NCBI GenBank assembly: GCA_963921275.4
Contig: OZ001293.3
Span: 4,512,001 to 4,576,000 of the forward strand
DNA length: 64,000 nucleotides
Direction of reading: 5' to 3'
Origin: an uncultured Hormoscilla sp.
Lineage (GTDB): Bacteria > Cyanobacteriota > Cyanobacteriia > Cyanobacteriales > Desertifilaceae
Shown: positions 833-57,493 of the stretch, one piece after another
How the letters are laid out: every line of letters starts with the position of its first letter
Numbering within the stretch: position 1 is the first letter of the stretch
Made by a program: the position numbers and the translations under genes
Notes under the pieces: model-generated
Database searches by the model: none
What the model was told of the DNA's origin: nothing
The model's input: the letters and a program-made list of their open reading frames with translations, nothing else

Positions 833-1092
833 TAAATTAGGTAAATGTTAGTAAAGAGCGGTCTATATGGGTTGGTACTGTTATCCCCCGCGAACCTTCC
901 GGAGTTAAGCATTTATCTAGTCTGAGACTAACCATAAGGGGTTCCATTGCATGAGGAAAGGAACAAAGGGAGTAATCCTGAGTAATTCTACCCATGACAA
1001 GGGCTATCTACCCAGTAGCCGTGTGCGGCTCCAGTCGCATGCACGGTTCCTCAAGGGAGGGTCGGGAGGCGACAATAGGCTCGACCCCGACT
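833..1092 (+). mobile_element. 3' part of an ORF-less group II intron (DII extension to DVI), bounded on the left by IS982
   Basis: DV-like AGCCGTGTGCGG...CGCATGCACGGTTC (from 1017), DVI ending CTCGACCCCGAC(T); collinear with 56420-56674. Confidence 0.85.
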
Positions 1093-1120
1093 TCCTTAGT
1101 CTATGACTTTTTTAAGGCTA

Positions 1121-1993
1121 GGGTGTGTCATCAATCAAATTGCTTGACAGAAATAGATGGATACGGTATGGAGTCCTTATCCAGCAATAACAATCAAGAG
1201 GGCATGATATGAGACGCTATGGCTTGCGAGACGACCAGTGGGAACGGATCGAACACCTTTTACCTGGTAAAGAGGGTGACCCAGGCGCTACAGCCAAGAA
1301 CAATAGATTATTCGTGTTCTGCCGTGTTATATCGATATCGTGCTGGCATTCCCTGGCGGGATTTACCGGAGTGTTTTGGGGATTTTCGGGTTGTTCATAC
1401 CCGCCATACCCGTTGGTCTGAAAAGGGAGTTTGGAAGCAGGTATTCGATGTCTTGGCCTCAGACGCCGATAACGAATACGCCGCGATTGATGCCACCATC
1501 CTGCGTGCCCATCAACGAGCGTGCGGGTGCAAAAAAAAACACCCTCAGATACGTGCGAAACCCAAGCCATAGGCCGTAGTAAAGGGGGACTATCGACAAA
1601 GATTCATGCCACTTGCGATTGCCCAAGGCAATCCCACAGGATTTCATCTTACCCCTGGCCAAGCCCACGACGGGAAAGGCGCTGACGTGCTATTGGATAA
1701 AATCGGTGAGATTGGCGCGCTGCTTGCAGATAAAGCCTATGATGCGGAACAACGTGTGCTCGAGCGCCTGAAAGAGGCGGATTGGATGGCTGTCATTCCT
1801 CCAAAAAGTAACCGCACAGAACACAGAGAATACGATGAAGAAATGTACAAGTGGCGGCATCTAATTGAAAATCTATTCCAAAAACTCAAGCAATACAGGG
1901 CTCTGGCGACACGCTACGATAAAACGGCTCGCAATTTCTTGGGTGCCATCTACCTCGCGGCAGCTGTAATATGGCTTAATTGATGACACGCCC
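1121..1993 (+). mobile_element. IS5-family (IS427-like) element with a frameshifted transposase
   Basis: TIRs GGGTGTGTCATCAAT / ATTGATGACACGCCC, TA duplication; motifs [36 protein letters not shown] spread over several frames. Confidence 0.92.
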
Positions 1994-2001
1994 TAGTTTC
2001 T

Positions 2002-3387
2002 GGTCGGGGTCGAGCTGTCCCTCGCGGGACAATCCTCCCATTCGGAACCTGAAGAGCGACTTTCACCGCACACGGCTACTGGTTGGTAAACCCTTGTCAC
2101 GGGTAGGATTACTAGGGATTACTCCCGTTGTCCCTTGCCCTATGAAATATAGCCCCTTTATGGTCAGTCATGAACTAGTTGAGTACCTAACTCCGGAAGG
2201 TTTACGGGGGAGAACTAGAAAACCACTATGACCGTTCTTTACTAACAGGTGCCCGTATGGGGCCTCTAAATTTTTTACCCGGTTAGGATTTCAGTCCATC
2301 ATTACTACCTAGTGTTGCCACTGGTTAAGCACGTTTAGAGGGCTACTATCTCCTAGAGCTTTTTACCATATCCGTCCTACGTCTGCATATCCACAGGCAT
2401 TACCCCGGGCATTAGCTTCTTAGGACCTCCCTCCCCACGCGGGCATGCGCTAGGCGCTGCGCGCACGCTACGACGCACATCTGACTTGTCCATCTGGACA
2501 GCACCGCTCTTGTCCGGAACGTTCCCTGGTATCATTTCACGAGGCTTTTAGGTCTCCCCTATACACCGGCAGTCATTTCGGGTACGATATCAGTGACTTT
2601 CACCGCACACGGCTACTGGGTAGTTGGTCCTTGTCACTGGTAGGTAACTTCGGGATTACTCCCGTTGTCCCTCGTCTCATGAGATTTGGCCCCTTGAGCT
2701 TATCCATCTCTGACAGGTTTCCCCCGAGCTGTAGGCATATTTAGGGCTACTTTTACCCAAGACTTCCAACTATCACCGACCGACGTCTGCATATCCCAGG
2801 CGTTACTCCGGGCATTTGCTTCTTAGGCCATCTTTCCCATTCGCGGCTTGCGCTTCACATCTGACTGGTCCTTTAGGACAGTACACGAAGGGTTACTTCG
2901 TTCCCTGGTCTCATTTCACGATGCCTTTAGGCCCCTACTTTTCCCCGGCAGTTATTTGGGTACAATGTTAGCCAATTCCCTAACTAACACTAACTGCATT
3001 AACTTTTGTTCCAGCGCATTAAGCCTTATTTCGCTAGTTGGGTTTAACGAGGTTTACATAGGTTCGCTTGTTCTAGCCATGGACATCATCGAGCGCGAAG
3101 TTACCGGCTTAGGCTGCCAGCTATCCTACATTTAAGTCCTCGCTCAGTACCACGGTGATGTTACTCCGCAGCGCCGAGGACCGGTGTTACCCCCGTACCT
3201 GGGGAGGGGGAATTAAACCCCCATGATTACCAGAGTTCCTAGTTTCCTAGGCCAGCGTTCCGTATATGACTACGTTAGGCTGGAACTCATCGCACGGGAA
3301 TTTAACCCTCATGGCACCAAAGTTACCTGGCACATAAGACCAGGCCCGATTTTCACCATTACTGGTTTACATCAGAACGAGTCGCAC
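2002..3387 (-). mobile_element. ORF-less group II intron (outer intron of a twintron; internal deletion)
   Basis: Minus strand starts GTGCGACTCGTT at 3387 and ends DV/DVI ...GCTCGACCCCGAC(C) at 2003/2002; homologous to 55748-56674. Confidence 0.85.
2595..3295 (-). mobile_element. ORF-less group II intron (inner intron), truncated within DV
   Basis: Second GTGCG start at 3295; EBS1 GGGAAT (2980-2975) complements IBS1 ATTCCC immediately upstream; DV breaks after AGCCGTGTGCGGTGAAAGTC. Confidence 0.85.
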
Positions 3388-3550
3388 CATATGATTTACC
3401 CTGGATGGATATTCGCGCAAGCGTAAGAGTCATGATACAGAATTCTGATTACGTTTTTCCGCTAGGACATCGGTTAAGTATTATCATTGACCGGGTTTTT
3501 TGACTGACTCTCTAGGTGCTTTCGCGCCTGGGAAGCACTCTTCGTGCTTA

Positions 3551-4387
3551 CTACGAACGGGGCGATCGATCGTAACCGAGACTGATTTTACCAGGTTCTA
3601 GGTAAATTTCTGACCCTGGTGCCCCAGAAGTGGGGTTGAGGCGAACCCGCAGCTTTCCGCAAGCAGAAATTCCCGTGACCAGGCCCGGATGGCCATCTAC
3701 CAGGACTGGACGGGCCATGCTGGTGAGCAGTTGTTGGTAAGATGACAACAAATTCCCCATGGGTTGCAGTTGGGCCTGCTGGTATCCCCAGACTATTCCT
3801 TGCAAGGTCATAGCTGCTAGCTTTTCTAGGGATGTTACGAGTGGCCGTGGGTCTGAGGCCAGGAAGCTTTTGAGGTTGATACCGATTTCCGGTACAGGAT
3901 TTTCCCAGTTTATCCCCACCCCGACTACGACTTTGGTAATTTGGCCCCTCTGGACGCGGGTTTCGGTGAGTATGCCGCCCAGTTTGCGATCTTTGAGAAT
4001 AATATCATTGGGCCACTTCAGTTGCACGGGAATCCTGGGTTGGTCTGGATCTGAACTACTGGGAAGTTGGCGCCAGGTTGTGGCAATGCCCCAGGCACTG
4101 CTAATTGTTAGCAGTAGGGCATTCTGGGCGCCCATCTTGGGGGTGAGTGCTAGGGAGAGGTATAATCCACCGAGAGGCGATCGCCATTGGTGTCCGCGCT
4201 GTCCCCGACCTGCGGTTTGCTGGGCGGCGATGACGACTGTTCCTTCTGTTGCTCCTCGGTCAATTAGCTCCCACAGAACGCTGTTAGTCGAACTAACTGT
4301 ATCATAAATGTGGAGCACAAAGGGAAATGGGCATGTTGACTCTTGCTTGAGGGCGTTTTTTAAAAGATCGCGATCGATTCTCACCAT
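3551..4387 (-). CDS. birA: Biotin--[acetyl-CoA-carboxylase] ligase
   Basis: Motifs STN, QTAGRGQRG..W.S, LKWPND, RKLGGIL, GVGIN. Confidence 0.95.
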   Translation of the reverse strand: MVRIDRDLLKNALKQESTCPFPFVLHIYDTVSSTNSVLWELIDRGATEGTVVIAAQQTAGRGQRGHQWRSPLGGLYLSLALTPKMGAQNALLLTISSAWGIATTWRQLPSSSDPDQPRIPVQLKWPNDIILKDRKLGGILTETRVQRGQITKVVVGVGINWENPVPEIGINLKSFLASDPRPLVTSLEKLAAMTLQGIVWGYQQAQLQPMGNLLSSYQQLLTSMARPVLVDGHPGLVTGISACGKLRVRLNPTSGAPGSEIYLEPGKISLGYDRSPRS

Positions 4388-4485
4388 TACTCACCGAAAT
4401 AATTCTGTCTTAGATTAGCATGGCGCGATCGCCTTAAATTTCTTTTCTAATGCAATAATTTTGAATTTTGAATTTTGAATTGCTT

Positions 4486-5253
4486 ATGAATAGTTGGCAT
4501 TGGCAGACTGGGTCGGAATTATCTTACTTGACTTGCAGTCTTTTATCACCCTGGTCCCACGGTTTTTTTACCAGGCAGTTTTTTCCGCGTCCCCCGGTGG
4601 AGTTGGTGGAGGTGTTGCAACCTACTGCTGCTGTCTATCAGGCGAAACAGGTACATGGTAATGTGGTGGTTACGCCTGCGGAATTCATCAACCAGTCTTT
4701 ACCAGAGGCGGATGGAGTAATGACTGCAACTCACAATCAATCTGTATGGGTTTGTTCTGCTGATTGCGTTCCCGTGCTGATCGCTGATGCTCATACTGGT
4801 CAGGTGGCGGCGGTGCATGCGGGTTGGCGCGGTACTGCTGCTGAAATTATATCACGGGCGATCGCCCGTTTGCAAGCACGAGGTAGTCAATTGTCAGATT
4901 TGTGCTTTGCCATCGGGCCTGCGATCTCGGGCCCTGTCTACCAGGTTTCTGTGGAGGTTGCTGCCCAGGTGGGGGCTACGATCGCCCCTACTGGGGATGA
5001 TAATGCTATTTTAGAGTATTTGTTCGCTTTGCGCGATTCTCCTTTGTTTCCGGATCCGGAACCAGGACGGGTACGTTTGGATGTTCCCCGCGTGAATGCT
5101 ATCCAGTTGCAACAGTTGGGTGTGCAGGGGACTCAGGTGGCGATCGCCCCTCATTGCACTTACCAAGAACCCGAACATTTCTTTTCCTACCGCCGTAAAG
5201 ATATCAAAAAAGTGCAATGGTCTGGTATTGTTAGTTCGTCTAGGGGGAGATAA
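4486..5253 (+). CDS. pgeF: Peptidoglycan editing factor PgeF (YfiH, laccase-domain protein)
   Basis: HGFFTR, QVHG, ADCVPVL, HAGWRG, IGPAI, FFSYRR motifs. Confidence 0.92.
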   Translation: MNSWHWQTGSELSYLTCSLLSPWSHGFFTRQFFPRPPVELVEVLQPTAAVYQAKQVHGNVVVTPAEFINQSLPEADGVMTATHNQSVWVCSADCVPVLIADAHTGQVAAVHAGWRGTAAEIISRAIARLQARGSQLSDLCFAIGPAISGPVYQVSVEVAAQVGATIAPTGDDNAILEYLFALRDSPLFPDPEPGRVRLDVPRVNAIQLQQLGVQGTQVAIAPHCTYQEPEHFFSYRRKDIKKVQWSGIVSSSRGR

Positions 5254-5509
5254 TCGCTCTTCGTGATTACTACGAACGCTTATAGGAATGCCTTGACTCT
5301 GGCAATTGTGAAAATCGGGGGTTCTTTGATTACCGATAAGTCTCAACCTTTTACTTTGCACGATCGCAATTTATCTACGATTATTACCGAAATTGCTGCT
5401 ATTAAACAATTTCAACCTGACTTGCGATTGATTCTTATCAACGGTAATGGCTCTTTTGGACATGCTACCGCCCAAAAGTTTAGTACCGATCGTGGTTTTG
5501 CTGACGCAA

Positions 5510-6516
5510 CAGTATCACTTGACATGCGATCTAATATAATAATATAACTCAAGTTGCTACCTATTAAAAAAAAATGGATTACCCACTTAGAGATTTCCGA
5601 TATTTTTGGTAGGATACAGAAATATATTATTTTTATGCTATCAGTAGCCATCCCTGTTTATAGGTTATAATGTACTAAAATAACAGTTGATTGCGGTAGA
5701 TTATGGAAAATATGATTATAACAATTTTTGTTCTTGGCGATGAACTGCTAAAAGCACTCAATATCAAAGAAGATCCACAAGTAAAAATGAATAATGCGGA
5801 GGTGATGACAGTAGGATTAGTTGCTGCTTATTTTTTGGGAGGGCGATAGAGATCGTCAATTTATGGCAGAACATAACTAGATCAAAAATCTGTTAAGTAA
5901 AAGTAGGTTTAATCGTCGAAAACATAAGATTGATGAAACAATTGTATGGGAGTTTATTTCAAGCAATGGCTCAATCGTTCGCTAAATCCGGGGCAAGAAT
6001 ATATTATCGATAGTTTCCCTGTGCCAGGATGTGACAACATTAGGATCGATAGATGTAAAATTTATACAGAAGAAGAATATAGAGGATATATCGCCAGCAA
6101 AAAACGTTATTTTTATGGATTGAGAGTTCATATGTTAGTCAACAAAACTGGTAAACCAATAGAATTTTATTTTGCTCCTGGTAGTTGTAATGATGCGAAA
6201 AAATTGCTTTGCCATCAAAGGTTTATGGGGACAAAATTTATAACAATTATCAATTAGAAGATTTACTAAAAAAGTCAATGAATATAATGTTCAAACATTT
6301 GCGTAAAAAGAACGCGGGTTCAATATGTACAGAACGTAACTAGAAAACAAGTAGAAACATGCTTTAGTTGAATAACTAATTTGTTTCCTAAGTCCTGCTG
6401 TTACATCCAAAGGGTTCGAGTTAAAATTAATTCTATTTATCATAGCTTTTTGTGTTCAATTTTTATAGGTCGCAACTTAAGTTAATATATTATATCGCGC
6501 ATGTCAAGTGATACTG
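5510..6516. mobile_element. Palindromic MITE (about 64 bp when empty) carrying an IS982 insertion
   Basis: Arms CAGTATCACTTGACATG (5510-5526) and CATGTCAAGTGATACTG (6500-6516); an uninterrupted relative lies at 37912-37967. Confidence 0.8.
5547..6482 (+). mobile_element. Degraded IS982-family element
   Basis: TIRs ACTCAAGTTGCTACC / GGTCGCAACTTAAGT, 7-bp duplication TAATATA; fragmented transposase homologous to 8760..9584. Confidence 0.9.
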
Positions 6517-8586
6517 CGGGGTTCTGTTGCTTGCAAAAAGATACCGCCCAACTAAATCCCTTGCTGGTCGATCGCCTCAGCAAGCATTCCTGCTATTAGT
6601 TTTACTCCCGGAAATGTTTTTTGGACAGACGATAGCCAAGATTTTTATGGTAACATAGAAATCTTATAACATTGCTTGGTGCGAAATTTTGTCCAGGTTT
6701 TATATGTGGAGGCAATTATCGACTTGAAGTTAAACGGTACGACCATTTCTTCTGACGTTATCTTGCAGTTACTGGCAGCATATTTTGCTAACTATCCTGA
6801 TTTCACTATGCACAAGTTAGTCAATGCTGGCAAGGGGGGGTTTTAGATGATAAAGGACAAGTAATTCCGCAAATTACCGATTTTTCCGGAACGGTGGAAA
6901 ACTTTGCCCAAGTGCAAGGATATTTGTACAACCTACATTCCCCACGGATAAATATCGACGATAGCTTGACAAACAGCTTGTGATTTTACAAATTATTATA
7001 CAACCGATCCCTATAAATAGATATACGTCCTGTTTACTAAATTGTCAGAAGTCAGTACGGATTACAAAAGTAATATAATAGTAATCTAAGTGATAAATTA
7101 CGTATTACTTAGTATGTTACAAATTGTCGTGCGTAAAGTGGGGTACTTGACATTGGCAGATATTTCTGGCGGGATGGCAAAATGTGGGAGTTCTTAAAAT
7201 TGGCAAGGTTAAAGCAGCAAACGATCGTTATCGATAGGTCCATACCCGGGAATTTGCAGAATGTTTTTCGGAATGAAGAGTTTGTGGGGACTGTGTGCGA
7301 CAAAGGGTACGGCGAGTAGCACGGAGTACATCGGTGTTGTGAAGAGGCGATCGCTCTTCCGGGTTAGGCGATCGCCTAACCCGTATGGGGACGGACCTCT
7401 GGAGAGAAGTCACCCATCTAATTTCAAGCGCATTGACAAACCCAAGCACTAATCTTGATTTTCTCTTGATAATTTCTCGTTAATCGCGGTTGGCGGTATC
7501 GAAAAAATTTGACCCCAAGAGCCCCTGACGATCGGGGTCCTAAGGGAAGATGCAACTTTTTCTTAAGTCTATCGCATCCTTGATAAAACAGTATTAGTAG
7601 TCAGAATAACTGACAACTGACTGACCATTCAACCCTTGTGGAACTCATAGACACCCAAAATTGAGTGAGCAGCCCCCAATCCTTGTTGGAGGTTCCACTC
7701 TAGATCCCTTAGTAAAAAGGCCAGTTGGGGTTCGATTAAATTGGATCGCGGGTCATCGAGGTGGAATGCTGGTGCTTGTTGCACCCCATGGCGAATCCCG
7801 CGAATGGCTTGCTGCACGACTGGTCGATAACTAACCGGGGGTTCTGCCACTAACTTTGGGGGGTTCCGCCACTCAGCCAGGGCATCCATGCAAGCATAAA
7901 CCAAGGAATTCCAGGCATCTTGCAGGGTGTAGAAAAATCGGTTCAAGTGTAGCGTAGTCCCATGAGGTTTGTACTCGAAAATTAGCTGAGACAAGTCCGT
8001 GCGGCAATTAGTTTCGTGCAAAGAGTTGACCGCAGCGCGGATGGGAGGCGCGTCGGGATTGTATTCGCGAGTATCCATATGACGACCGACCAAAATGGAG
8101 CGATCGCACAGCCGTCGGCGGTAAACCTTCACCCCTTTGCTAGCAACTGTCTTGTTCACGAACCGGTCCAACTCTTCGCCACCCCAGTAGCGAATGGGAA
8201 ACCGCTCCACCTCAATCTCCTTACTAACGTTGGGACCATAGATATAAGACATCGAGTACATTTTTTGGGTTGACTCATTTTCCTGGGAGTTCTCCCAGTA
8301 GCAGGGCCATTCATAGGAATAGCGACCGAGGAAATCACCGACAAAAATTGCTCTTTCCCCCATATGGTCGCAAATATCGGACAGAACTTTAGCCAAGTTG
8401 GGGTCATTCAGGTGGGATAACGACGCATAAGAGGAAAAGTAGACGTCGTAAGCGAATTCTCCCGCTGGCAGTTGAAGTCCCTCATTGAGATCGGTCACCG
8501 CAAACTCAGCTTGGGGGTGGTTGCGGTGGAGATCTTTTGCCTTGTCAATCATCGCTGGACTGATATCCAAGCCTTTGTAACAACTA

Positions 8587-9598
8587 ACCTAAGTTGCGAC
8601 CTATTAAAAAAAATATGAATTACCCACTTAGACTTTACAGATATTTGGGATATTTCGTAGCTTTTGATACAAAATTATATTTTTTTTGTGCTATACGGCG
8701 GGTTGGCTGTTTATAGGTTATAATGTACTAAAATAATAGTTAATTGCTGGGGGATGTAGATGATGGAAGATATGATTACAACAATTTTTGTTCTTTGTGA
8801 CGAGCTACTAAAAGCGTTAAATATAAAAGAAGATCCACAAGTAAAAATGAACAATGCCGAAGTGATGACAGTCGGATTAGTTGCTGCATATTTTTTCGGA
8901 GGACACCACGATCACTCTTGTCAATTTATGGTCCAACACAAGTATATAAAAAATCTGTTAAGTAAAAGTAGGTTCAATCGTCGATTACACAATATTGAGG
9001 AACCAATTTGGATGTTTTTCTTCCAAGTTATAGCTCAAACATTTAAAGAGCTCAATCCGGGTCAAGAATATATTCTTGATAGTTTCCCGGTGCCAGTATG
9101 TGATAATATTAGGATTGATAGATGCCAAATTTATAACAAGGAAGAATATCGAGGGTATATTGCCAGTAAAAAACGTTATTTTTATGGATTAAGAGTTCAT
9201 ATGTTGGTAAACAAAAATGGAAAGCCAATAGAATTTTATCTAGATCCTGGTAGTTATAATGATGTTAAAGTTTTGCAATCTTTTGGCTTTGACTTACCAT
9301 CAAATTTAATAGTTTATGGAGATAAAGCTTATAATGATTATCAATTAGAGGATTTACTAAAAGAGTCGTCAAGTATAATGTTAAAACCTTTGCGAAAAAA
9401 GAACTCAAAAAGAAAAGAATATTCTTGTTTTGAATATATACAAAAAGTAACAAGAAAACAAGTTGAAACCTGTTTTAGTCGAATCACAAATTTGTTTCCC
9501 AAGTCAATTCATGCTGTTACATCTAAGGGATTAGAGTTAAAAATAATTCTCTTTATCATAGCTTTTTGTATCCAATTTTTATAGGTCGCAACTTGAGT
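8587..9598 (+). mobile_element. Intact IS982-family element
   Basis: TIRs ACCTAAGTTGCGACC / GGTCGCAACTTGAGT; 9-bp TSD TAACAACTA (8578-8586, 9599-9607). Confidence 0.95.
8760..9584 (+). CDS. IS982-family transposase
   Basis: 274 aa; DSFPVPVC, YFYGLRVH, YGDKAY, RKQVETCFS motifs. Confidence 0.93.
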   Translation: MMEDMITTIFVLCDELLKALNIKEDPQVKMNNAEVMTVGLVAAYFFGGHHDHSCQFMVQHKYIKNLLSKSRFNRRLHNIEEPIWMFFFQVIAQTFKELNPGQEYILDSFPVPVCDNIRIDRCQIYNKEEYRGYIASKKRYFYGLRVHMLVNKNGKPIEFYLDPGSYNDVKVLQSFGFDLPSNLIVYGDKAYNDYQLEDLLKESSSIMLKPLRKKNSKRKEYSCFEYIQKVTRKQVETCFSRITNLFPKSIHAVTSKGLELKIILFIIAFCIQFL

Positions 9599-10294
9599 TA
9601 ACAACTAATGTCTTGATAGTCCAGTACCTTCTCAATTTTGGTATCCAATGTAGCCTGGGTTTGAGGCAAGCTCGTAAGGATATTCAGACCTTCACCAGCA
9701 CCGCATCCGAGATCCAGCACGCGAATGCCAGTACCGGACTGTCGCTTGCTGGCAACCAAGGGACTGATAAAATGGCCGATCAAATTACGGCTAAAGCGAT
9801 CTTCCCAATGCCGCCTGACATTATCATGCTTCCCGAATAGACCAGCTGAATGCAGATCGTAGGCTCCAATAGCCACTGCCTTAGCGTAGTTTTTGAGAAC
9901 CTCTTGTTTCATATAGGGGGGGCCTTTATTGTTAATGTCTAACAGACCCAATATACTTGAATTGCTGGGAGCTACACAAGCATCCACCTACGGGTGTGGT
10001 CATGCCTTTGTCGATCGCTCAGACTCCACCAATAACCTGGTTTCGCAGGAGAAACCAGATTTCTGGTCCCACGCGACTACCTCCTCTACCAACTGGTGCA
10101 AGACCGCACCCTCCACCCACGTGCAAGGGTTTCTTAACGCGCTCATCTAGAATTGCTGTTGTCAATAACAAACCATAAAGCATAGTTATTATGCTAAAAC
10201 CCCTGCTTATTGACAATAGGCGCTTACCCTGGAATTCAATGACATATCTAGTTGCATTCTTATCTAACTATCCACCCGTTCACGTTCAATACAT

Positions 10295-23337: not shown

Positions 23338-24618
23338 ATGAGTTACTGTATCAACCCCCAATTGCCCCAATCCTCAAAACTCTGACAACCAGCTATTTGG
23401 CGCTGCTTGCGGTTCGGAATTACTCCTAGAAGGACAATATCGCATCCTGGGCAAACTAGGCGGCGGTGGTTTTGGCACTACCTATGAGGTAGATGACCCG
23501 AAACAACTGCCGGTATAAAGGAGAGACCTAAAAGCCTCGCGAAATGATACTAGGGAACGAAGTAACCCCTCGTGAGCTGTCCAGTAGGACCAGTCAGATG
23601 TGAAGCGTAAGCCACGAGTGGGAAAGATGGCCCGAGAAGCTAATGCCTGGGCGGTGTCTGGAGCATGCCGTGTCCTTCAGGACAAGAGCCCGGTGTCTGG
23701 AGCGTACCGATGGCGCTACGCTGGGCGCGCAGCGCATGTCCTTCAGGACAAGAGTACGCTCCAGACACCGGAGCGGAAGACGCCGGGTAATGCCCATGGA
23801 TACGCTGACGCGGGTCGGAGATATCAGGAAGCTACTGGTTGAAAGTAACCCTAAAAGGTTATAAACCATGCACAATTAGTGACATAGGGATAAATAACTG
23901 GTAAAACGAGCGAGTAAATGGTGATCCCTTAAGGTTTCTCGGCTGCACCAATCACCAACCAGGGAAGGGGCCAAATTGCAAGTAGTAAGGGCCAACGGTG
24001 AGCAATCCCTAGTAAGCCTATCCATGACAACGGACCTGGTACCCAGTAGCCGGATGCGGTGAAAATCGCACGTCCGGTTCGGAATGGGAGGGTTGGGAAG
24101 CGATTTCCAGCTCGACCCCGACTGGAACGGCAAAGGTTTTGAAAGTCCTGCATCTGAACGAACCCAAAGCTATCTCCCTATTTCAGCAAGAAGCAAAGGT
24201 ATTAGAACAGTTGCATCATTCAGGGATTCCCAAGGTTGACCCTGATGGCTATTTTACCTTTGTTCCCAGAAGCAGCCAAGAGCCCCTGCACTGCTTAGTC
24301 ATGGAAAAAATTGAGGGAGAAGATTTGCAGAATTGGCTAGAAAAACGAGGACGCCCTATCAGTCAAAAGTTAGCACTCAAATGGCTGACTCAGCTAGTAG
24401 AGATTCTCGATGAGGTACATCAGAAGCATTTTTTCCATCGGGATATCAAACCGCCCAATATCATGCTGCGCCCCAGCGGACAACTAGCATTGATTGATTT
24501 CGGCACGGTTAAAGAAATCACGGCTATCTACATGGCAAATGTGAATGCAGGACAGCCAGGTACTGTTGTTTATTCTAGGGGTTATGCGCCAACGGAGCAA
24601 GAAAACGGTCATACATTG
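23338..24618 (+). pseudogene. Hanks-type Ser/Thr protein kinase, disrupted by a frameshift, an intron remnant and IS4
   Basis: MSYCINP start, LGGGGFGTTYEV, KVLKVL, HRDIKPPN, LIDFG, GYAPTEQ. Confidence 0.9.
23498..24123 (+). mobile_element. 5'-truncated ORF-less group II intron with nested small repeats (about 23653-23785)
   Basis: Canonical DV AGCCGGATGCGGTGAAAATCGCACGTCCGGTTC; DVI ends CTCGACCCCGAC(T); the kinase resumes at GGA ACG GCA AAG. Confidence 0.85.
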
Positions 24619-26067
24619 CTTACCACCCCTCAGTTTTCCAGCGAGCCCATAGAGGGGGGACCGGGAGTCCATGACGAATCACTCGAATAATCAGACGAAG
24701 TCCAGTGGTAAACAAAGAACACCAAGAACGGAAGCGTTTTGAAGGAGACTTGGGTAAAGGCGTCTCATCACTCATACCAGCAGATGTAGACCAATACATC
24801 GCTAGTGCCATAACCAAAATCAAACGTTCAATACGATCTGCATGCTCAAGTTGAGTTTCAGTAATGCCAAAACCTCTGGTTTTGAAATCCGAAAACATGG
24901 GTTCAATTCCCCAACGAATCCCATAATCTCGTGTTTTGTATTCGGAGGCAGGACAATCCAGAGCTACGATCCAAGGTTCGTCATAGCCAGGGTCTTGAAG
25001 TATACCAATATTAGTTTTTACTTCTTTCTCGTTAAAGCAAGCTCCATTCGAGATTTTTACTCCCAGTGCTGCGGCATCTCTACCAGTAATTTCTCCTCCT
25101 TGGTGTTGGAAAATCAGGTTACCCTTCAGGCGAATCCGGTAACTCCATTGATGATTTTGACACCATTCTACCATCGATGGCGTGCCATAGAATCTGTCAG
25201 CCATCAACAAGATGGAAAAATCTTCAGACAGCATCTGGTATACTTTTTCTAGTAATTGCTTTTCCTCTGAGAACCCTATAGCTCCCTTGGTTTTTTTTAC
25301 ATACCATAGCAATGGCAAAGACCTCCCCCCCATACTGACACTCACCATCAGCACTTCAAAGCCATTTCCCACTTTGCTTTGATCCAATATTAGGAGCAAC
25401 TGCTCTCCATAAGCGGTCATGTTCTCACACAACTCTCTTCCGTAAGAAGCCATTACCAAAGTAACGTCCACTTCGTCACTTGCGAGAAATCTGCTGATAT
25501 ATTGATAGCGTTTTTCATTGTGCTTGATGGGACGGGGTAGTGTGGCGGCCAAGACCATTAGATTGGCAGTTCTCTCTGACAACATGCAACTGACCAAATT
25601 TGCCAAACCTAGTCGCCTAGGTTTACTTAAGCCTGTATCTCGCTGTTCGATATCTGCTAAGATATCGGAGCAAATTTTCGGAATTCCGCCTGATTCCATG
25701 TTGTCAATAAAACTGTGTTTTTTTTCGTTGGGCTCTCCTGCGTTTATCGTAGTAAATGTATCACAAAATACAAATATAGCGGGACAAAAAGGCTGAAACC
25801 CTTGATTTTGTGTGAATATAAGTTTGACTTATCACCCAAAAGGCCGGAGACCCTTCGTTGTCTATTAACGCACGTGGATAACTAGTATTTTTGCTGAGTC
25901 CCCAATTGGGAGATGCTCTCCGTTTTTCTGACTAGACAAATATTTCCATGTATTAATGATCGATCCATAAAAACTCTTTGGAATCAACAATCCATCTCAT
26001 CCCCTAATTGTGCAACGGCTTTTTTTGTACTCTTGGGAATCATAGCAGAATTTTGAGGGGTGGTAAG
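24619..26067 (-). mobile_element. IS4-family element
   Basis: TIRs CTTACCACCCCTCA / TGAGGGGTGGTAAG; flanks do not match, consistent with an adjacent deletion. Confidence 0.8.
24620..25699 (-). CDS. IS4-family DDE transposase
   Basis: LILDQS, LMADRFYG, YGIRWGIEPMFSDFK (YREK-type motif). Confidence 0.9.
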   Translation of the reverse strand: MESGGIPKICSDILADIEQRDTGLSKPRRLGLANLVSCMLSERTANLMVLAATLPRPIKHNEKRYQYISRFLASDEVDVTLVMASYGRELCENMTAYGEQLLLILDQSKVGNGFEVLMVSVSMGGRSLPLLWYVKKTKGAIGFSEEKQLLEKVYQMLSEDFSILLMADRFYGTPSMVEWCQNHQWSYRIRLKGNLIFQHQGGEITGRDAAALGVKISNGACFNEKEVKTNIGILQDPGYDEPWIVALDCPASEYKTRDYGIRWGIEPMFSDFKTRGFGITETQLEHADRIERLILVMALAMYWSTSAGMSDETPLPKSPSKRFRSWCSLFTTGLRLIIRVIRHGLPVPPLWARWKTEGW

Positions 26068-41290: not shown

Positions 41291-42082
41291 CTATTCGTGC
41301 AATTTGACAGCGGTTCTGATTATCTGTCCTGCTAACATGGCCGCCCCGAAACCATTATCTATATTAACCACGCCAATGCCAGCAGCGCAAGAATTGAGCA
41401 TTGCCAACAGGGCAGCTAAACCTTTAAAACTAGCACCGTAACCTACACTGGTAGGCACGGCAATCACGGGACAATCTGCCAAACCCCCGACTACACTGGG
41501 CAAGGCCCCTTCCATTCCTGCTGCTACGATTAACACATTAGCAGCATCAATAACTTGGCGGTTACTCAACAGGCGATGGATGCCAGAAACCCCCACATCC
41601 CAGAGGCGCTGCACTTGAAAACCGCCCAGTTCCGCTGTTACTGCTGCTTCTTCTGCTACGGGTAAATCTGCTGTTCCTGCTGATAATATCCCTATTTTAC
41701 CCGGATGCTGCACTTGAGGCGTCCCTAGAGCACATATTCTAGCAGTCTGGTAATAGCGTAAGTCAGGTACTTTTGATTGTACTTCAGCATAGACATCTGG
41801 TTCGATCCGCGTTGCCATCACTACAGCCGTGCGATTTTTCGGACCGTCCGCGGGCCGATCGCGCATCACCTTGATAATCTCAGCAATTTGTGCTGGAGTT
41901 TTCCCTAGTCCCCAGATTACTTCTGGAAAACCCGTTCTCAAACTGCGATGATGGTCGATGCGGGCAAAATCTCCCACCGGTTCAAAGTCAAAATGCTTAA
42001 GCCGATCTAAAGCGTCACCTGGGGTTACTTGACCAGCTGCGACTGATTCTAACAGAGTTCGTAAGGCTTCAGGTTGAGTCAC
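41291..42082 (-). CDS. larB: Nickel-pincer cofactor biosynthesis protein LarB (CpmA) with an 8-aa repeat insertion
   Basis: DHHRSLRTGFPEVIWG, AGTADLPVAEEA, GMEGALPS, VNIDNGFGAA. Confidence 0.93.
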   Translation of the reverse strand: MTQPEALRTLLESVAAGQVTPGDALDRLKHFDFEPVGDFARIDHHRSLRTGFPEVIWGLGKTPAQIAEIIKVMRDRPADGPKNRTAVVMATRIEPDVYAEVQSKVPDLRYYQTARICALGTPQVQHPGKIGILSAGTADLPVAEEAAVTAELGGFQVQRLWDVGVSGIHRLLSNRQVIDAANVLIVAAGMEGALPSVVGGLADCPVIAVPTSVGYGASFKGLAALLAMLNSCAAGIGVVNIDNGFGAAMLAGQIIRTAVKLHE

Positions 42083-42369: not shown

Positions 42370-43764
42370 ATGAACCAACAGACGATCGAGGTAGTAGTAC
42401 TCGGGAATGCACAAGGGCCGCCCACCAGGACTACCACTCCACCACGCAAGCCAAAGTGGCATGATACAATTAATTACATAGGAAATCCCGATAGTTTCTG
42501 TCGCCAAAATCGGGAAAAATATGGTCCCTGCTTCAAAACAGCGCTACGGTCTTTGTGGGGTCTGCTAAAGCAATTCAAATGGCTTTTAATGGGGACATGA
42601 AGTATACAGAGATTGACTTGCCACTTACGACAATGGACATGTTTGGTCCCTACAGCCTGTTTCAGCGTCCTGATTTACATCGCCAGCGCAAAACTGCTCT
42701 GGGACCGGGTCTGACTAGTCGCGCCCTTGATGGATATACGCCCCAGATCGATGAGACGATCTGGCGTGGCCTCCAGGACTGGAGGTCCCCCGGTAGCATA
42801 GCACTCTACCCGACAGTGGAGAAGATCTGTTTTGACGTGCTTGTCCCTCTGTTGCTGGGAGTCACCTGGAATCACTCTGATCGGGCGACCTTCGAGGGTC
42901 TACCCGTTTCCTCGAAGGCGGAACTAAAGGCTTTGTATAAGACATATTTTGATGGCTTCTATGGCTTGTTGAAGTGGATGTCTCGTTTCACAGCATATGG
43001 TCGGGGACTCAAGGCGCGGGCGGCGCTGATCGACTTTATGAGGGCTGTGATTCGCAGGCGGCGGGTAGAAGGGCCCAATTAATCCTGCTGCGGTATTTCT
43101 GTCGATGATGCTAGCTGGCCAGCAGGAAAATCCAGATGGGGTTTTTAGTGATGACCTGATAGAGAGTTAATGCTTACTACGGTTATGGGCGTCACACTAC
43201 AACATTTCCGTACTGATATGTTCTCTGATCTACTAGCTGGGGGGACACCCACAGGTGGTGCAGCGGCTGCTCGAAGAGCAAGCAGTGGTGATGGGTATAC
43301 AGAGCAATGTCAACAGGTTTGAACCGGAGCATTTGAAGCAGATGCTTTTTCTAGAGGCGACTATCAAGGAGATACTGCGCACCCTACCTCCGAGCTCAAG
43401 TGCTAATCGTCGGCTCATTAAGTCTGTGGTGTTGGATGGGGTGCTATACGAGAAGGGCTGGGTTCTGATTGCCGAGCCACGGATTGCTAACATGATGGCA
43501 GAACATTTTCACAAACCGGAGCTATTCGATCCAGATTGTTTCGGACCAGAGCGTGGCGAGGGAAAGATGTATCAGTTCATTGCCTTTGGCGGTGGCGTCC
43601 ACGCCTGTCTGGGAGCCCAGATGACGATGGTAGTCACTAAGCTGTTCGCCTCTCATTTGCTGCGCCTGTTTGACTGGAAACTGACGGGGGAGGCCAAGTT
43701 CGTGCAGTTTCCCCTCAGGAAGATTAAGGATGATTACCAAATTGATATTGTACGCCGAGTGTAG
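42370..43764 (+). pseudogene. Cytochrome P450, frameshifted and with internal stops
   Basis: KYGPCFKT, EATIKEILR (ExxR), FGGGVHACLG heme motif; breaks at about 42545, 43080, 43168 and 43233. Confidence 0.9.
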
Positions 43765-48722: not shown

Positions 48723-48739
48723 CTTCTCTCCTCATTGTT

Positions 48740-50029: not shown

Positions 50030-50160
50030 ACCGCTGCTACTTGGGGAAATAACCAGCTATGGGGCACTGCTTCTACCTGAATGATGTTTTTTGGCAGTTC
50101 ATACGCCTCCAAACCTCCCCAACGTTTGGCTATTATCCCCCGCTGACCGCACTTTACGGG
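50030..50160 (-). pseudogene. Glycosyltransferase (GT1 / sterol glucosyltransferase-like) fragment
   Basis: VPHSWLFPQVAAV motif. Confidence 0.6.
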
Positions 50161-50269
50161 TGTGGTCATGCATTTGTTGGCAACCGATCCCCCCCAGCCC
50201 CCCTTAAAAAGGCTATGCCTTACTCACATATTTCTTAACATTTGTCAGGGAGTGGAGGAGGGCTTTCAA

Positions 50270-51000: not shown

Positions 51001-51054
51001 CCAGCGAGAGAGAACTTCAAACAGCGCACAAACATGAGGTTTCCAACTGCCAAG

Positions 51055-51205
51055 ATTAGGGGTCTCCCTGGGAATCGCTTCCCAACCCTCCCGTTCGGAA
51101 CCGGACTTGCGACTTTCACCGCATCCGGCTACTGGGTAGTAGGCCCTTGTCATTGGTAGGATTACTGGGGATTACTCCCGTTGTCCCTTATCTCATACAA
51201 TTTGG
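51055..51205 (-). mobile_element. Group II intron 3' fragment (DIII-DVI)
   Basis: Canonical DV AGCCGGATGCGGTGAAAGTCGCAAGTCCGGTTC; ends GACCCCTAAT. Confidence 0.8.
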
Positions 51206-51357
51206 TGCCCATCATCCCGTCCGAAGTGCAACGCCAACTAATTATAGCGTTTGTCAGATAGATGCGATCCGCTCTGCGATCTATCTGAATACGGGTGTGG
51301 TCAAAACCAGTTGGTAAAGAAAAGGTAAAATTATGACGATTTCACTGGTTGATAAAC

Positions 51358-52870: not shown

Positions 52871-52919
52871 TCAGCGTCGATCACGTAGCGAAGCGTGTGC
52901 GCGCAGCGCAATCCTTTTG

Positions 52920-53167
52920 GCCAGGATATTAGAATAACGTCCCTGAAAGTAGGGCGGAGTCGGGGGGTCGATCGGGAAGTCGATCCCTAAAGTCGGCTCT
53001 AACGGCTGCACGAATGTCGTGACCCGAAGCTGGTTGCCCGGATCCGAGAGGCTGTCCCCAAACACGTAAAGCTTACTGAAACTTTCCGGTGCGTCGGAGA
53101 TCGGCAACATCTCTTCGGAGAGGTCATTTTCTGTGACTGGCATAGTTCTGATCATATTTTTCAGCAC
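52920..53167 (-). pseudogene. SGNH/GDSL hydrolase N-terminal fragment
   Basis: LYVFGDSLSDPGN...PPYFQGRYSN, then truncated. Confidence 0.75.
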
Positions 53168-53249
53168 AAATCCTAGTTTTTTAGATTCGATGGCGGCGAT
53201 CGCCCCGGTATCTTTATGCTAATATTAGCATAAACCATAACCTAAGATA

Positions 53250-53717
53250 ATGGCTACTAACAAAATCAAGATTGCTAAAGACAAGGCTGATTTAGTGAAA
53301 GCCTTACTAGACGAGAGCGAGACCACCGGACCATTCCAGACCTATGCTGATGTGATGGCCTTTGCCGCCGCCTTGGGGGCCAAGCGGAAAAAGCGATCGC
53401 CCCTGGGAGCAGTTGCAAAAAAAGAACCGGGCCCGATCGGACTGGAAATATTTGCCTCCAGAGGATATGATGTGATGATGAAATTACTGGCGATCGTGGA
53501 AACCTAAGACCCCAAAATCCTCTCTTCATGCGACCCAAAATATGAGTCACAACGCATCCAAATATTTGAAGAATATGCCAATGGCGGACTAGAAGTATTG
53601 CGAGAAGAATTGCGGGGTGTAGTAGATTATACCGAACAACTTTTATTGATTATGCAAGCTGAACGGGATAAACCACAGCAGTCAGAACAGGAATTCGATT
53701 TAAGCAGATTTCTTTAG
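53250..53717 (+). pseudogene. DNA phosphorothioation (dnd)-associated protein 4-like, single in-frame TAA at 53505
   Basis: IAKDKADLVKAL...FQTYADVMAFAAALG; the frame continues IFEEYANGGL...FDLSRFL*. Confidence 0.75.
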
Positions 53718-53809
53718 GCTGGCGAATAGTGAGCGGTGCCCACCCGACAGCTTCCGATTACCCACATTGTTATTGTGATATAATCGGATATTAACCCGCC
53801 TGGGAGGAA

Positions 53810-54994
53810 GTGAAAGTTGAGGAGGAGTCTATATTTGTGAATATCGGTCAATGGCTGGGCTTTTTCAGTTTAGTTTTATCCCTATATATTCTCTGGGAAA
53901 TTAGACATATTATTTTGCTGGTATTTACAGCCGTAGTATTAGCAACAGCATTAAATCGTGGCGTGCAGCGGTTACAGAGATATACTCCTTTGAGCCGTAA
54001 CATGGCAGTTATCTTGATGATGATCTGTACCCTACTGTTTTTCGTGCTGTTTTTTTGGCTAGTTGTGCCACCCTTTATCGAGCAAATTCAAAGCTTGATC
54101 GACCTATTACCTAACGGGTTGAAACGCATTGGCATCCTGCTGGATGAATTGAGTCGTAACCGCCCGGAGTGGATGCCAGAACCGCCAGACCTTTCCAATT
54201 TAATCCAAGAATTACAGCCCTTTGTCACTCAGCTGCTGGGGAACTTTTATGCTTTTTTCTCCAATTCCCTGATTGCGGTAGGTCAACTGTTGCTAGTGAT
54301 TGTGCTGACAATTATGATGTCGATCAATCCCCAGGCATACAGAAAGATATTTGTGCGGCTGTTTCCTTCCTTCTATCGCCGCCGGGTAGATTATATTCTC
54401 TCTGAATGTGAAGAGGCGTTGGGAAACTGGTTTGGAGGCATTGTCATCAATTCGCTGTTTGTTGCTACTACCTGTGGCATCGGTTTGTGGTTATTAGGAG
54501 TAAAGTTAGTGCTAGCTCATGCTCTCTTAGCTGGGTTATTCAACTTTATTCCTAATTTTGGACCCACCTTAAGTGTGATCTCCCCGCTGACAGTCGCCCT
54601 TTTGGACAAGAATCCTCTGGGAAAGGCAGGTGCTGTATTGATTCTGTATGTGGTGATTCAGAATATTGAGAGCTACTGGCTGAGTCCTACTGTCATGCAG
54701 AAAAAGGTTTCCCTACTCCCTGCTGTAACCCTGTTAGCTCAAATCACATTTACCGCCTTTTTCGGTCCCCTAGGGTTGATCTTAGCATTGCCCCTAGCTG
54801 TTGTTGCTCAAACCTGGCTCAGAGAAGTATTGATCGAAGATATTCTCGACAATTGGACTGGTGACCAGGATGCAACCCCTTCGACCGAAAGCGATTTTCC
54901 CAGTGAAACTGATACCCCGATCGCCGATTACCCTCAGGATCCACCTATTCCCAGTCCCGAGAGACAACCTAACCAAGCTAATGCTGAGTCGTAG
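53810..54994 (+). CDS. AI-2E family transporter
   Basis: Multiple TM helices, NFIPNFGP, QNIESYWLSP, GLILALPL. Confidence 0.88.
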   Translation: MKVEEESIFVNIGQWLGFFSLVLSLYILWEIRHIILLVFTAVVLATALNRGVQRLQRYTPLSRNMAVILMMICTLLFFVLFFWLVVPPFIEQIQSLIDLLPNGLKRIGILLDELSRNRPEWMPEPPDLSNLIQELQPFVTQLLGNFYAFFSNSLIAVGQLLLVIVLTIMMSINPQAYRKIFVRLFPSFYRRRVDYILSECEEALGNWFGGIVINSLFVATTCGIGLWLLGVKLVLAHALLAGLFNFIPNFGPTLSVISPLTVALLDKNPLGKAGAVLILYVVIQNIESYWLSPTVMQKKVSLLPAVTLLAQITFTAFFGPLGLILALPLAVVAQTWLREVLIEDILDNWTGDQDATPSTESDFPSETDTPIADYPQDPPIPSPERQPNQANAES

Positions 54995-55198
54995 TCAGTT
55001 GTTAGTTGTTAGTTGTCAGTCAGTTGTTAGTTGTCAGTTGTTAGTTGTCAGTTGTCAAGCTAATAGCTTGATAGCTGATAACTGATGCCCCGATCGCAGT
55101 CTGTGAACAAACATGTTTGGGAGAATAAAATGCAGATTATATGTGAATAGTTGGGGCATGATTATCAGAAATACAAATTACTTGAATAGGAACTACTT

Positions 55199-57493
55199 GG
55201 GTACATCTCAGTTAGGCGATGAGTAATTATACTTAGTGCTTGTATCCCTCAAAACGGTACATAATTTAGGCACTGTTGACCACCCTTGACCCATGAACTC
55301 CCAAAAGCAGGCTGAACTCCAGCAACATCTTGACGCGATTGCCGCGATTCTCTACCAGGAAGCCGACCCCACTGAACTCACCACCCTTGAAGGCATTGAG
55401 AAAAACGTTCGTGCGCTTGCCCAAGAACACGTCTGGCCTCAACTAGGAATTTTTTTATCAACACGGCGACTTCCCGCCGCACCGGAAAACAGCGCACCCT
55501 GACCAGTATCCTGGGCAAACTAACCCTCACCACTGCTCAAGCCCAACAACTGCAAGTTAAACCGGGAACTCGTTGGAGTCCGTATGTGGAAAAATGTTGT
55601 TGGGTCGTCAGTGCCAATGCCTCTTACCAGAGAGCCGATTTTTCGGGCCGTCCGCGGACCGTAAAAGATCTCGCGATGCTGACTGGGGTGAGCATCTCCC
55701 ACAGTACGCTCCAACGCTTTGTTCAACGAGAGGACTGGTCTGAGGTAGTGCGATTCGTTCCGGCATAAGCCAGTAGGTGAAAGTCGGGTCTGGCTCTATC
55801 AGCCAGATAACTCTGGTTATCATGGGGGTTAAATTCCCCTTCCCCAGGTACGGGGGTCGAGGGTACTACCGGTCGGAGGTGCTGCGGAGTCACATCACCG
55901 TGGTGTGGAGCGAGGACTTAAATGTAGGATAACTGGCAGCCTAAGCCGGTGACGCCGCTAGGAAAGATGTTAATGGTTAGAACAAGCGAACCTATGTAAA
56001 CCTCGTTAACCAGAACCAGCGGAAGAAGGCTTATGCGCTTGCCCAAAAAGGGAAATGGTAGTTAGTATTAGCTCTTGCCTCTGGCTAATAACGTACTCAA
56101 AGAACTCTCGGGGTATAGTAGGAACCTAAAAGCATCGCGAAATGATACCAGGGAACGGAGTAACCTCTCGTGAGCTGTCCCCATTTGGACAAGTTAGATG
56201 TAAAGCGCAAGCCACGAAGAGGAAGGATGTCCTAAGAAGCCAACGCCCGGGGTAATGCTTGTGGATATGCAGACGTAGGACGGATATGGTAAGACACCCT
56301 TGGGAAAAGTAACCTTAATGTCACAGAACTAGGAAGAAATTCCAAAAGTACGAATCTTGGATTCAAATCTTAGCCAGGTAAAGTTCAGAGCCCCTACGAA
56401 AAGCGGAAAGCAGAATGGGGAAGATGTTAGTAAAGAGCGGCGAGTATGGTTTGCTGAACTATCCTCCGCGAACCTTCCGGAGCTAAGTACTTAAACGGTC
56501 CAATAGGATTGACCATAAGGGGTAAAATTTCAAAGGGTAAGGGACAACGGGGGTAACCCCCAGTAATCCTACTGATGACAGCAGCTTACCAACCAGTAGC
56601 CGTGTGCGGTAAAAGTCGCTCTTCAGGTTTCGCTCTTGGAGGGTTGGTACGTGAGTACCAGCTCGACCCCGACCAAGATAGCTGAACCGATTCAGGAGCT
56701 CAGCTTGGATGGCGGCATGATTCGCCTTCGTACCGATTTTTCGGGCCGTCCGCGGACCGTGGAGGGTCAACCTGGTGAGTGGCGAGAATACAAAGCCTTA
56801 AATGTCCATGAGCAAGGCAGTGTGGCTTTCTTCAAGGATAATCAAGGGCTGCTTGAGTGGGTGAATGCCCAGCCCCTCGGGGCGCAGTTCACCGGTCTCG
56901 GAGATGGTCATGATGGGGTGTGGAACATTTTCAGTGGTATCGGGACACCAGAACAACGTATCGAAGTGCTCGATTGGTATCACCTAATGGAAAATGCCAA
57001 TAAGGTGCAAGGGACACCGGCTCAATCCGATTTTTCGGGCCGTCCGCGGACCGTGCAGATCCGATTTTTCGGGCCGTCCGCGGACCGTGCACTCCTGTGG
57101 CGAGGGGAGACCCAGAGGGCGATTAGTTATCTGCGCCAACAGCAATGTCGGGGAGCCACAGGGTTGATCAACTACTTGAAGCACCATCAGACGCGCATCA
57201 TTGACTACCAGACTAGCCCTCCTGGCGTCGGGCCGCTGCGCGAACGGGCAGGCAGCTCGGCACTCGATTGGCTCTGGTCGGGTTGAGTCCCTGGTGAAAC
57301 AAATTGGGTTAAGGGTGAAATTACCGGGGGCACAATGGCGAGCCGAGAATGTGCCGATTTTTCGGGCCGTCCGCAGACCGTAGGTGTTGAAGCATCGCTG
57401 TGCCTACCTGAATGGCGCATTAGTTGCCTAATCAGACTCAGTAAATCCACTTGTGCTGAGTAAATATACTCATCGCCTAACTGAGATGCACCC
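55199..57493 (+). mobile_element. ISKra4-family element containing a group II intron and six small repeat insertions
   Basis: 25-bp TIRs GGGTACATCTCAGTTAGGCGATGAG / CTCATCGCCTAACTGAGATGCACCC; 8-bp TSD AACTACTT; DGG, GDGHDGVWN, LDWYHL, IGSG.VES motifs. Confidence 0.93.
55748..56674 (+). mobile_element. Full-length ORF-less group IIB intron (about 927 nt)
   Basis: GTGCG start; EBS1 TGCCTC (56076-56081) pairs with IBS1 GAGGTA; DV and DVI present; removal restores EDWSEV-KIAEPIQE. Confidence 0.9.

Follow-up and report, generated by a model that had tools for sequence, protein, structure and literature searches.

Among described systems, the closest to the elements reported here are cyanobacterial group II introns that lack an open reading frame (ORF). 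For Thermosynechococcus elongatus, the parts of the published study on which we draw give 28 introns, 17 of them ORF-less and derived from one ORF deletion; they describe six families of exon-binding sites (EBS), twintrons, and insertion into insertion sequence (IS) elements, and they report that ORF-less introns were mobilized experimentally by the intron-encoded proteins (IEPs) of other introns (Mohr, Ghanem & Lambowitz 2010, PMC2882425). In Trichodesmium erythraeum, 10 of 17 introns spliced in vivo were without an ORF, according to the sections cited (Pfreundt & Hess 2015, PMC4649490). According to the part of a survey cited here, introns are most numerous in cyanobacteria, Arthrospira platensis having 101, and obligate symbionts also show expansions (PMC8919778). 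A literature search, with supplements outside its reach, found no work linking Hormoscilla with a group II intron or Hormoscilla spongeliae with an intron. Here, we describe ORF-less introns in a 64,000-nucleotide (nt) stretch of DNA from an uncultured Hormoscilla sp. (GenBank assembly GCA_963921275.4, contig OZ001293.3, positions 4,512,001 to 4,576,000, forward strand; the whole stretch is hereafter called the window). They very probably belong to a family of group IIB introns that have no ORF and carry retargeted loops, served by a reverse transcriptase (RT) acting in trans. The family closely parallels that of T. elongatus; the kind of element is already known, and the family itself is an added, independent case.

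The original prediction listed six related copies or fragments. The whole window was scanned by BLAST with each of these elements and by nhmmer with a profile built from five full-length relatives, and the family matched exactly these six places and no others: 835–1091/1092 (plus strand; c1), 2002/2003–3387 (minus strand, two nested copies), 23497/23498–24122/24123 (plus; c3), 51057–51206 (minus; c5), and 55748–56673/56674 (plus; c6). The Rfam model Intron_gpII (RF00029; domains V and VI) has a gathering score of 40 bits, which was reached at 24045–24122 in c3 (50.1 bits) and at 51068–51133 in c5 (43.1 bits); 1014–1091 in c1 (29.9 bits) and 56595–56673 in c6 (12.7 bits) remained below it. Within the nested element, the piece that we call C gave no report at E ≤ 1, and the inner intron, B, retains just half of domain V (DV). 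A covariance-model scan, which had been put forward as a check on the family assignment, thus did return matches. Relatives were taken from a scan of genome contigs with a DNA pattern from intron domain V, which yielded at least 24 loci (labelled L004–L022 etc.; a sample of approximately 200 kilobases), all in Hormoscilla sp. genome bins and none overlapping the window. These relatives scored 44–48 bits with Intron_gpII, among the matches listed.

The targeting loops carry the main evidence. EBS1 was taken as 6 of the 11 nt that form the Id3 hairpin loop, facing intron-binding site 1 (IBS1) at flank positions −6 to −1. EBS2, facing IBS2 at −13 to −9, was taken as the 5 nt that follow a conserved CGTNA within one of the internal loops of domain I. 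In the stem of the EBS1 hairpin (helix 18), seven of eight pairs covary. The pairing test used 14 lineages at 21 sites (2 lineages from the window and 12 from Hormoscilla bins, among the matches listed); two interrupted copies, L009 and L008b (the latter identical to L013 over the first 300 nt), were excluded because their EBS1 region is missing. Mean pairing with the copy's own flank was 5.64 of 6 for EBS1 and 4.14 of 5 for EBS2, compared with 2.48 of 6 and 1.97 of 5 for the flanks of other lineages, and none of 100,000 flank permutations reached the observed own-flank total. For these 14 lineages, the matching of EBS against flanks, a check that the original prediction had called for, therefore lies far above chance. 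The own flank was the best-scoring flank in 13 of 14 lineages; at the exceptional site, L020, IBS2 is displaced by one base. Flank position −1 was paired in 19 of the 21 sites. All 14 lineages carry distinct EBS1/EBS2 pairs (14 pairs among the matches listed).

Only c6 and B retain targeting loops in the window. It had been claimed that the two copies with an intact Id3 loop carry different EBS1 sequences, each matching its own 5′ flank, and both parts of this claim held: EBS1 and EBS2 differ between c6 and B, and each copy pairs at 11 of 11 positions with its own flank, the best score with a foreign flank being 8 for c6 and 6 for B. In c6, EBS1 (TGCCTC, 56076–56081, plus strand, inside the 11-nt Id3 loop, the hairpin spanning 56068–56088) pairs at 6 of 6 positions, including one G-U, with IBS1 (GAGGTA, 55742–55747), and EBS2 (ACCAG, 56009–56013, in the internal loop that follows the conserved CGTTA) pairs at 5 of 5 with IBS2 (CTGGT, 55735–55739), the complete 5′-exon target being 55735–55747. 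In B, on the minus strand, EBS1 (GGGAAT, 2980→2975) pairs with ATTCCC (3301→3296) and EBS2 (AACCC, 3044→3040) with GGGTT, within a target at 3308→3296. A hairpin loop at approximately 56180–56195 was considered as EBS1 of c6 and rejected; it is the tip of domain II (DII) and has no complementarity to the flanks.

The boundaries of the introns are precise. GTGCG stands at the 5′ end at 55748 (c6), 3295 (B), and 3387 (the outer intron, A) and in all 21 aligned 5′ ends, and c3, c1, c5, and C retain no 5′ end. In all four genic copies, namely c6 (ISKra4 transposase), L004 (solute symporter), L012 (metallophosphatase), and L020 (PAM68-like gene), excision from GTGCG to one base beyond ...GACCCCGAC restores the reading frame: the upstream frame closes on a complete codon, and the downstream frame requires that one base be skipped. 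At L020, a second, RT-encoding intron offers a further comparison, its uninterrupted sequence fitting the flanks of an ORF-less insertion in L015 solely with the boundary one base later. The introns therefore end in ...GACC or ...GACU (...GACC or ...GACT in the DNA), with the presumed branch A (CTCG-A-CCCC) at −9, and frame restoration shows the end coordinates of the original prediction to be exact to the base. An end at ...GAC (...GACCCCGAC) was rejected, because the frames demand one further base in four of four cases. A start one base before GTGCG was likewise rejected; copies that are otherwise identical do not agree at this base, and in 19 of 21 sites it pairs with EBS1.

Copies of the family share a covarying RNA fold. 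An alignment of 13 lineages over the first 600 nt gave an RNAalifold consensus for domains I to III with 122 pairs, 70 of them with compensatory change. Paired cells amounted to 96.3%, compared with 85.1% in shuffles; covarying pairs averaged 31.5 in shuffles, none of 500 shuffles reached 70, and sliding the partners by one to three columns left 13 to 16. The DV lower helix also covaries among copies (CCGGAU/GUCCGG, CCGUGU/GCACGG, CCGUAU/GUACGG, and CCGGGU/GCCCGG). Rfam models for domains I–IV gave sub-threshold matches only (E = 0.36 at 3104–3222; E = 0.028 in L017), and domain I was therefore delimited from covariation. In c6, domain I closes at approximately position 410 of the intron and is followed by the DII hairpin, whose tip is variable, DIII, DIV of approximately 270 nt, DV, and DVI. 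The original description of DIV as very short in all copies is correct for only some of them: DIV measures approximately 10 nt in B and approximately 91 nt in c3, but reaches approximately 270 nt in c6. DIV falls into two length classes, one containing profile positions 568–752 (c6, the GM7CHS1pb intron described below, L020, L019, and L017) and one lacking them (B, c3, L007, L013, and L014).

Copy number in related genomes bears on mobility. The bin GM7CHS1pb holds at least seven copies of one 970-nt ORF-less intron at seven different sites, all with a GATAAA-like IBS1; four copies are identical, a fifth carries 1 substitution, and the other two are 969 and 966 nt long. At least two GUM202 copies differ at 2 positions. 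At L008:3152–4946 (the same region as L018), an ORF-less intron is split at profile 319 by a full-length one on the opposite strand, forming an antisense twintron, and at approximately L009:4917–5235 (minus strand) a copy is broken by a tandem 16-nt unit (GGAGACTTTCGTTTCC) followed by GC-rich palindromes. Single 24-nt matches to Rfam CRISPR-DR28 (36.6 bits; threshold, 35) lie near intron copies at L012:3785–3808 and L017:2440–2463.

As predicted, no window copy encodes an RT. A tblastn search of the window with a 608-amino acid (aa) Hormoscilla intron RT gave a best E value of 3.4 and found neither an RT nor the remnant of an RT ORF in any copy, and the longest sense ORF is 51 aa wholly inside c6 and 52 aa in 2002–3387. 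The DIV remnants that derivation through one ORF deletion would leave are not detectable, and there are two DIV length classes. In the Hormoscilla loci, at least three group II RT genes adjoin ORF-less copies (L020, L012, and L015). The RT of L020 is intact (608 aa; RVT_N, RVT_1, GIIM, and HNH domains; TIGR04416, 350.9 bits), and among solved structures it is closest to the maturase RT T.el4h of T. elongatus (6ME0_C, E = 7e-114). One PAM68-like gene contains an ORF-less copy and, 260 nt further downstream, the intron that encodes this RT (2406 nt, beginning GTGTG). The EBS1 loop of the RT-encoding intron, AATTCT, pairs with that intron's own flank, AGAATT, and its ribozyme matches the ORF-less profile collinearly (positions 1–521, E = 1e-23, plus DV). 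The sole stretch shared before DV is a short CCATGACAAGG. Because BLAST similarity is limited to short collinear motifs, we regard the L020 RT-intron as a relative within the class and reject direct parentage. The RT gene of L012 is frameshifted and that of L015 truncated, the L015 intron carrying an ORF-less insertion in the J2/3–DIII region. L022 was considered as an RT-intron with a DV of the ORF-less type and was rejected, since alignment shows that the 3′ end of its RT-intron abuts a separate, truncated ORF-less fragment. The gene of L020 (L020:281–3871, minus strand) holds its two introns in sense, the ORF-less one of 924 nt and the RT-encoding one, and removal of both restores the frames.

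At 2002–3387 (minus strand), the two nested introns of the original prediction proved to be a decayed twintron in three pieces; the nesting stands, and the count of pieces does not. The first 92 nt of the outer intron (A5′, 3296–3387; GTGCGACTCG...TTAAATTCCC; nhmmer profile 1–93) end in the 13 nt that form IBS2 and IBS1 of B, and the 5′ flank of B falls inside A, not at 3388. B itself (2595–3295; start, GTGCGATGAG; nhmmer profile 1–588 and 742–855) ends mid-DV at approximately 2595. Its target is a hairpin in domain I that is conserved across the family (GGGTTAAATTCCC); no other nested insertion at this hairpin was present in the Hormoscilla loci among the matches listed. The third piece, C (2002–2594; profile 331–908), is the 3′ part of A, beginning with the 3′ strand of the EBS1 hairpin and carrying a variant DV at 2046–2077. 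A5′ and C both resemble the L017 lineage, and the simplest reading therefore makes them opposite ends of a single outer intron; the 3′ end of B and A positions 94–330 would subsequently have been lost in a deletion of approximately 290 nt. An IS4/5-type element at 1119–1995 (DUF4096 and DDE_Tnp_1 ORFs; terminal inverted repeats TAGGGYGTGTCATCAAT) separates the convergent 3′ ends of c1 and A, which lay tail to tail, approximately 35 nt apart, before its insertion.

The sole full-length ORF-less intron of the window is c6 (55748–56674, plus strand; 927 nt, GTGCG...GACCCCGACC; nhmmer profile 1–908). It lies in sense orientation in an ISKra4-family transposase pseudogene, whose exon pieces match NF033572 at profile 53–159 and 181–369 and continue in frame across the junction. 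No empty-site paralogue of its target was found in the window or the Hormoscilla loci among the matches listed. The DV of c6 (56598–56631) has a variant 3′ strand, TCTTCAGG in place of AAGCACGG, which breaks three of the eight lower-helix pairs and folds at −5.9 kcal/mol (RNAfold), compared with −16.4 kcal/mol for the DV of c3; its Intron_gpII score is far from the threshold. The same change is common to three diverged copies in two genomes: c6, C (2046–2077, minus strand), and L016:341 (minus strand). The linker between DV and DVI of c6 holds a second CGCTCTT. In the ISKra4 transposase fragments, a dispersed repeat of approximately 28 nt (core TTTTCGGGCCGTCCGCGGACCG) has been inserted repeatedly and apparently in frame (DFSGRPRTV), at 55635–55662, 56733–56760, 57027–57058, 57061–57089, and 57351–57382; it occurs once more in the window at 41832–41857, and in the Hormoscilla loci at L020:4852–4883 and L008:2502–2527 and 2592–2617.

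The plus-strand copy c3 (23498–24123), predicted to be a family member, is indeed one by both Intron_gpII and nhmmer, with most of domain I missing. It starts at profile 343 and runs to the end, so that neither the 5′ splice site nor either EBS loop is present; its DV (24048–24081) is intact. A Ser/Thr kinase gene hosts it in sense, with GGGGFGTTYEVDD on one side and GTAKVLKVL on the other, and the Pkinase profile match (30–160) begins directly after the element. The exon frame is kept, with a 2-nt AC overlap at the 5′ junction; the truncation would most simply result from incomplete synthesis of complementary DNA (cDNA) after reverse splicing, with joining at this 2-nt microhomology. A gap in the profile match corresponds to a 131-nt palindromic insert in DIII (23652–23782, plus strand; −70.3 kcal/mol), a secondary insertion that does not belong to the intron itself and has a relative at L016:4306–4358. 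The insert is GC-rich and almost perfectly palindromic, has internal GTCCTTCAGGACAAGAG repeats, and looks like a miniature inverted-repeat transposable element. The kinase gene stops early (24690), with a transposase ORF on the opposite strand at its 3′ end (24620–25699), and is a pseudogene regardless of the intron. A tRNA-like reading of GGGTTCAATTCCCC at 24899 was rejected, as ARAGORN yields no tRNA gene in the window.

The remaining copies are 3′ fragments. On the plus strand, c1 (835–1092; profile 652–908) has a replaced DV tetraloop and is cut on its 5′ side by an IS end at 835 that matches 8585 and L011. IS copies with a DDE_Tnp_1_3 transposase at 233–835 and 8585–9600 are approximately 92% identical to the GUM202 locus L011 (3295–3711 and 5125–5732), and the copy ending at 835 truncates c1. 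On the minus strand, c5 (51057–51206; profile 758–907) has an intact DV and a diverged DVI and 3′ end (GGAGACCCCTAA versus CTCGACCCCGAC). The EBS1 hairpin was considered as a hot spot of truncation (c3 starts at 343, C at 331), and the idea was rejected, because 3′ fragments in the loci begin anywhere from 366 to 806 and because C is better explained by the deletion inside the twintron. Bacterial group II fragments have been attributed to 5′ or 3′ truncation by incomplete reverse transcription or IS insertion (Dai & Zimmerly 2002, via the portion used of Tourasse & Kolsto 2008, PMC2504315); c3, with its exact 5′ exon end joined to profile 343, and the IS-cut c1 fit as one clean example of each route described there. 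Every window copy is either incomplete or has a damaged DV in place of a canonical one, and all of them therefore look like relics.

The mechanism that we propose has the intron RNA acting as a ribozyme whose EBS1 and EBS2 would pair with the 13 nt upstream of the insertion point. The RNA would reverse-splice into the DNA site, and the cDNA would be made by an RT/maturase with an HNH nuclease domain; since the intron is without such a gene, the protein would be supplied in trans by another intron. Loop mutations would have founded new lineages with new targets, one of these targets being the family's own conserved hairpin, from which the twintron at 2002–3387 would have arisen. RNA-level spread is supported by the precise, frame-restoring boundaries of the four genic copies. 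These boundaries, the co-variation of EBS1 and EBS2 with the 5′ flank across 14 lineages, and flanks that differ from copy to copy right up to GTGCG and directly after ...GACC, with no flanking sequence common between copies, leave very little credence for spread as DNA (by segmental duplication, IS transposition, or ectopic recombination, with the loop/flank matches incidental). What speaks for DNA-level spread is that c6, inside a transposase gene, could be passive cargo; that IS ends bound c1; that the B|C junction is best explained by a DNA deletion; and that the damaged DV variant of three diverged copies suggests some DNA-level sequence exchange. Another alternative is that splicing from host transcripts, with a maturase acting in trans, continues today for copies in the window, or at any rate for c6 and c3. 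This is unlikely. A full-length c6 with intact GTGCG, flank-matched EBS loops, and frame-restoring ends would suit it, as would the DV/DVI score of c3, the best in the window, and its in-frame position in the kinase gene, but the DV of c6 has lost three of eight lower-helix pairs, c3 lacks profile 1–342 and carries the 131-nt insert in DIII, and both host genes are broken, the transposase profile lying in fragments with upstream stop codons and the kinase being met at its 3′ end by a transposase ORF. On these grounds, c6 would now be inactive.

It is also highly improbable that the family needs no group II RT, moving by reverse splicing into RNA or DNA while an unrelated cellular RT makes the cDNA, or that it was inherited purely vertically and diverged in place. 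The seven near-identical copies that one genome carries at separate sites rule out purely vertical descent. Independence from a group II RT draws on the lack of a closely related RT-intron or ORF remnant among the matches listed and on the damage to two of the three RT genes in relatives; set against it are the intact RT/maturase/HNH gene of L020, which stands 260 nt away from an ORF-less copy and belongs to an intron whose ribozyme is collinear, and the mobilization in trans by such IEPs that the T. elongatus study reports from experiments (PMC2882425). Several observations weigh against our own reading of an ORF-less family mobilized in trans. Group II introns usually end in AY, with a bulged branch-point A 7–8 nt upstream; this family departs from that pattern, its terminus being ...ACC or ...ACU. 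The RT/maturase genes were seen in related Hormoscilla bins and not in the window, two of the three seen are broken, no window copy has an RT ORF remnant, and no RT-intron among the loci listed appears close enough to be a direct parent. EBS2 of L020 pairs at only 1 of 5 positions at the fixed register. Window copies are mutually 69–84% identical by BLAST, and so nothing in the window indicates recent movement. Retromobility would not be expected to spread a dead DV, yet three diverged copies carry the same damaged variant; either gene conversion or some hidden function may account for it. As a statement on family history, the original prediction of a ribozyme family that spread with EBS diversification is nevertheless supported by the EBS/IBS permutations, the boundaries, and the near-identical copies. 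The spread belongs to the past, and all six window copies look inactive today.

Compared with the TeI3 (ORF-less) and TeI4 (RT-encoding) IIB introns of T. elongatus, as far as the cited parts describe them, the Hormoscilla family is likewise found in a cyanobacterial host in which ORF-less copies outnumber RT-encoding ones, with lineages set by flank-matched EBS1/EBS2, twintrons, and some copies in IS elements; the RT co-resident at L020 has the T.el4h RT as its closest solved relative. Unlike the six families given there, the Hormoscilla loci and the window together hold at least 14 EBS lineages; N- and C-terminal ORF remnants are not detectable by tblastn, and two DIV length classes replace one shared deletion. 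The ORF-less family is only distantly similar to the RT-intron seen, and the L015 insertion lies at J2/3–DIII rather than between the first two ATGs of the RT-intron. In addition, the host is not known as a thermophile, the window copies are all decayed, and the 3′ end is displaced by one base. With the Trichodesmium introns, in the sections cited, the family shares ORF-less copies in sense in protein-coding genes, thought to rely on trans maturases, and a twintron (PMC4649490); splicing in vivo is documented there, whereas the window copies look dead and are known from sequence alone, and EBS diversification is not the focus of those sections.

Nested arrangements are not confined to cyanobacteria. 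B inside A at 2002–3387, and also the L008 and L015 arrangements, resemble those of the archaeal Methanosarcina, in which Dai and Zimmerly are said to have described, in 2003, ORF-less and RT-encoding introns nested in one another. Homing there reportedly went into intron ORFs; B, in contrast, targets a conserved domain I hairpin.

The gene content around the copies is cyanobacterial and includes phycobilisome genes of the apcE/apcA/apcB type, an operon for ATP synthase, and numerous fragments of IS transposases. A cytochrome P450 ORF at 43255–43764 spans profile 297–438 only, and histidine-kinase pieces are spread over two ORFs at 57897–59164; these split or partial ORFs are further signs of gene decay in the genome.

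Taken alone, the window is an ordinary finding, relics of a known kind of element. The window and its Hormoscilla relatives together offer many lineages, clear guide/target co-variation, twintrons, copies lodged in ordinary genes, and decay at all its stages, and the family provides natural EBS/target pairs from which targeting rules of IIB introns may be read. Ordinary conserved genes host some of the lineages (the PAM68-like gene, the solute symporter, the metallophosphatase, and the kinase), and unannotated introns will disrupt gene prediction in these genomes. The ...ACC end and the DV variant common to three diverged lineages might mark a step toward dependence on trans factors. Multiplication of ORF-less introns through changes in guide loops, served by a shared protein, is the favored model for the origin of spliceosomal introns and their machinery. 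To our knowledge, few bacterial ORF-less radiations have been worked out, above all that of T. elongatus. We suggest only tentatively, and consider it rather doubtful, that Hormoscilla-like cyanobacteria host one of the most target-diversified ORF-less group II radiations in bacteria, in which a few shared RT/maturases would serve as a common splicing apparatus.

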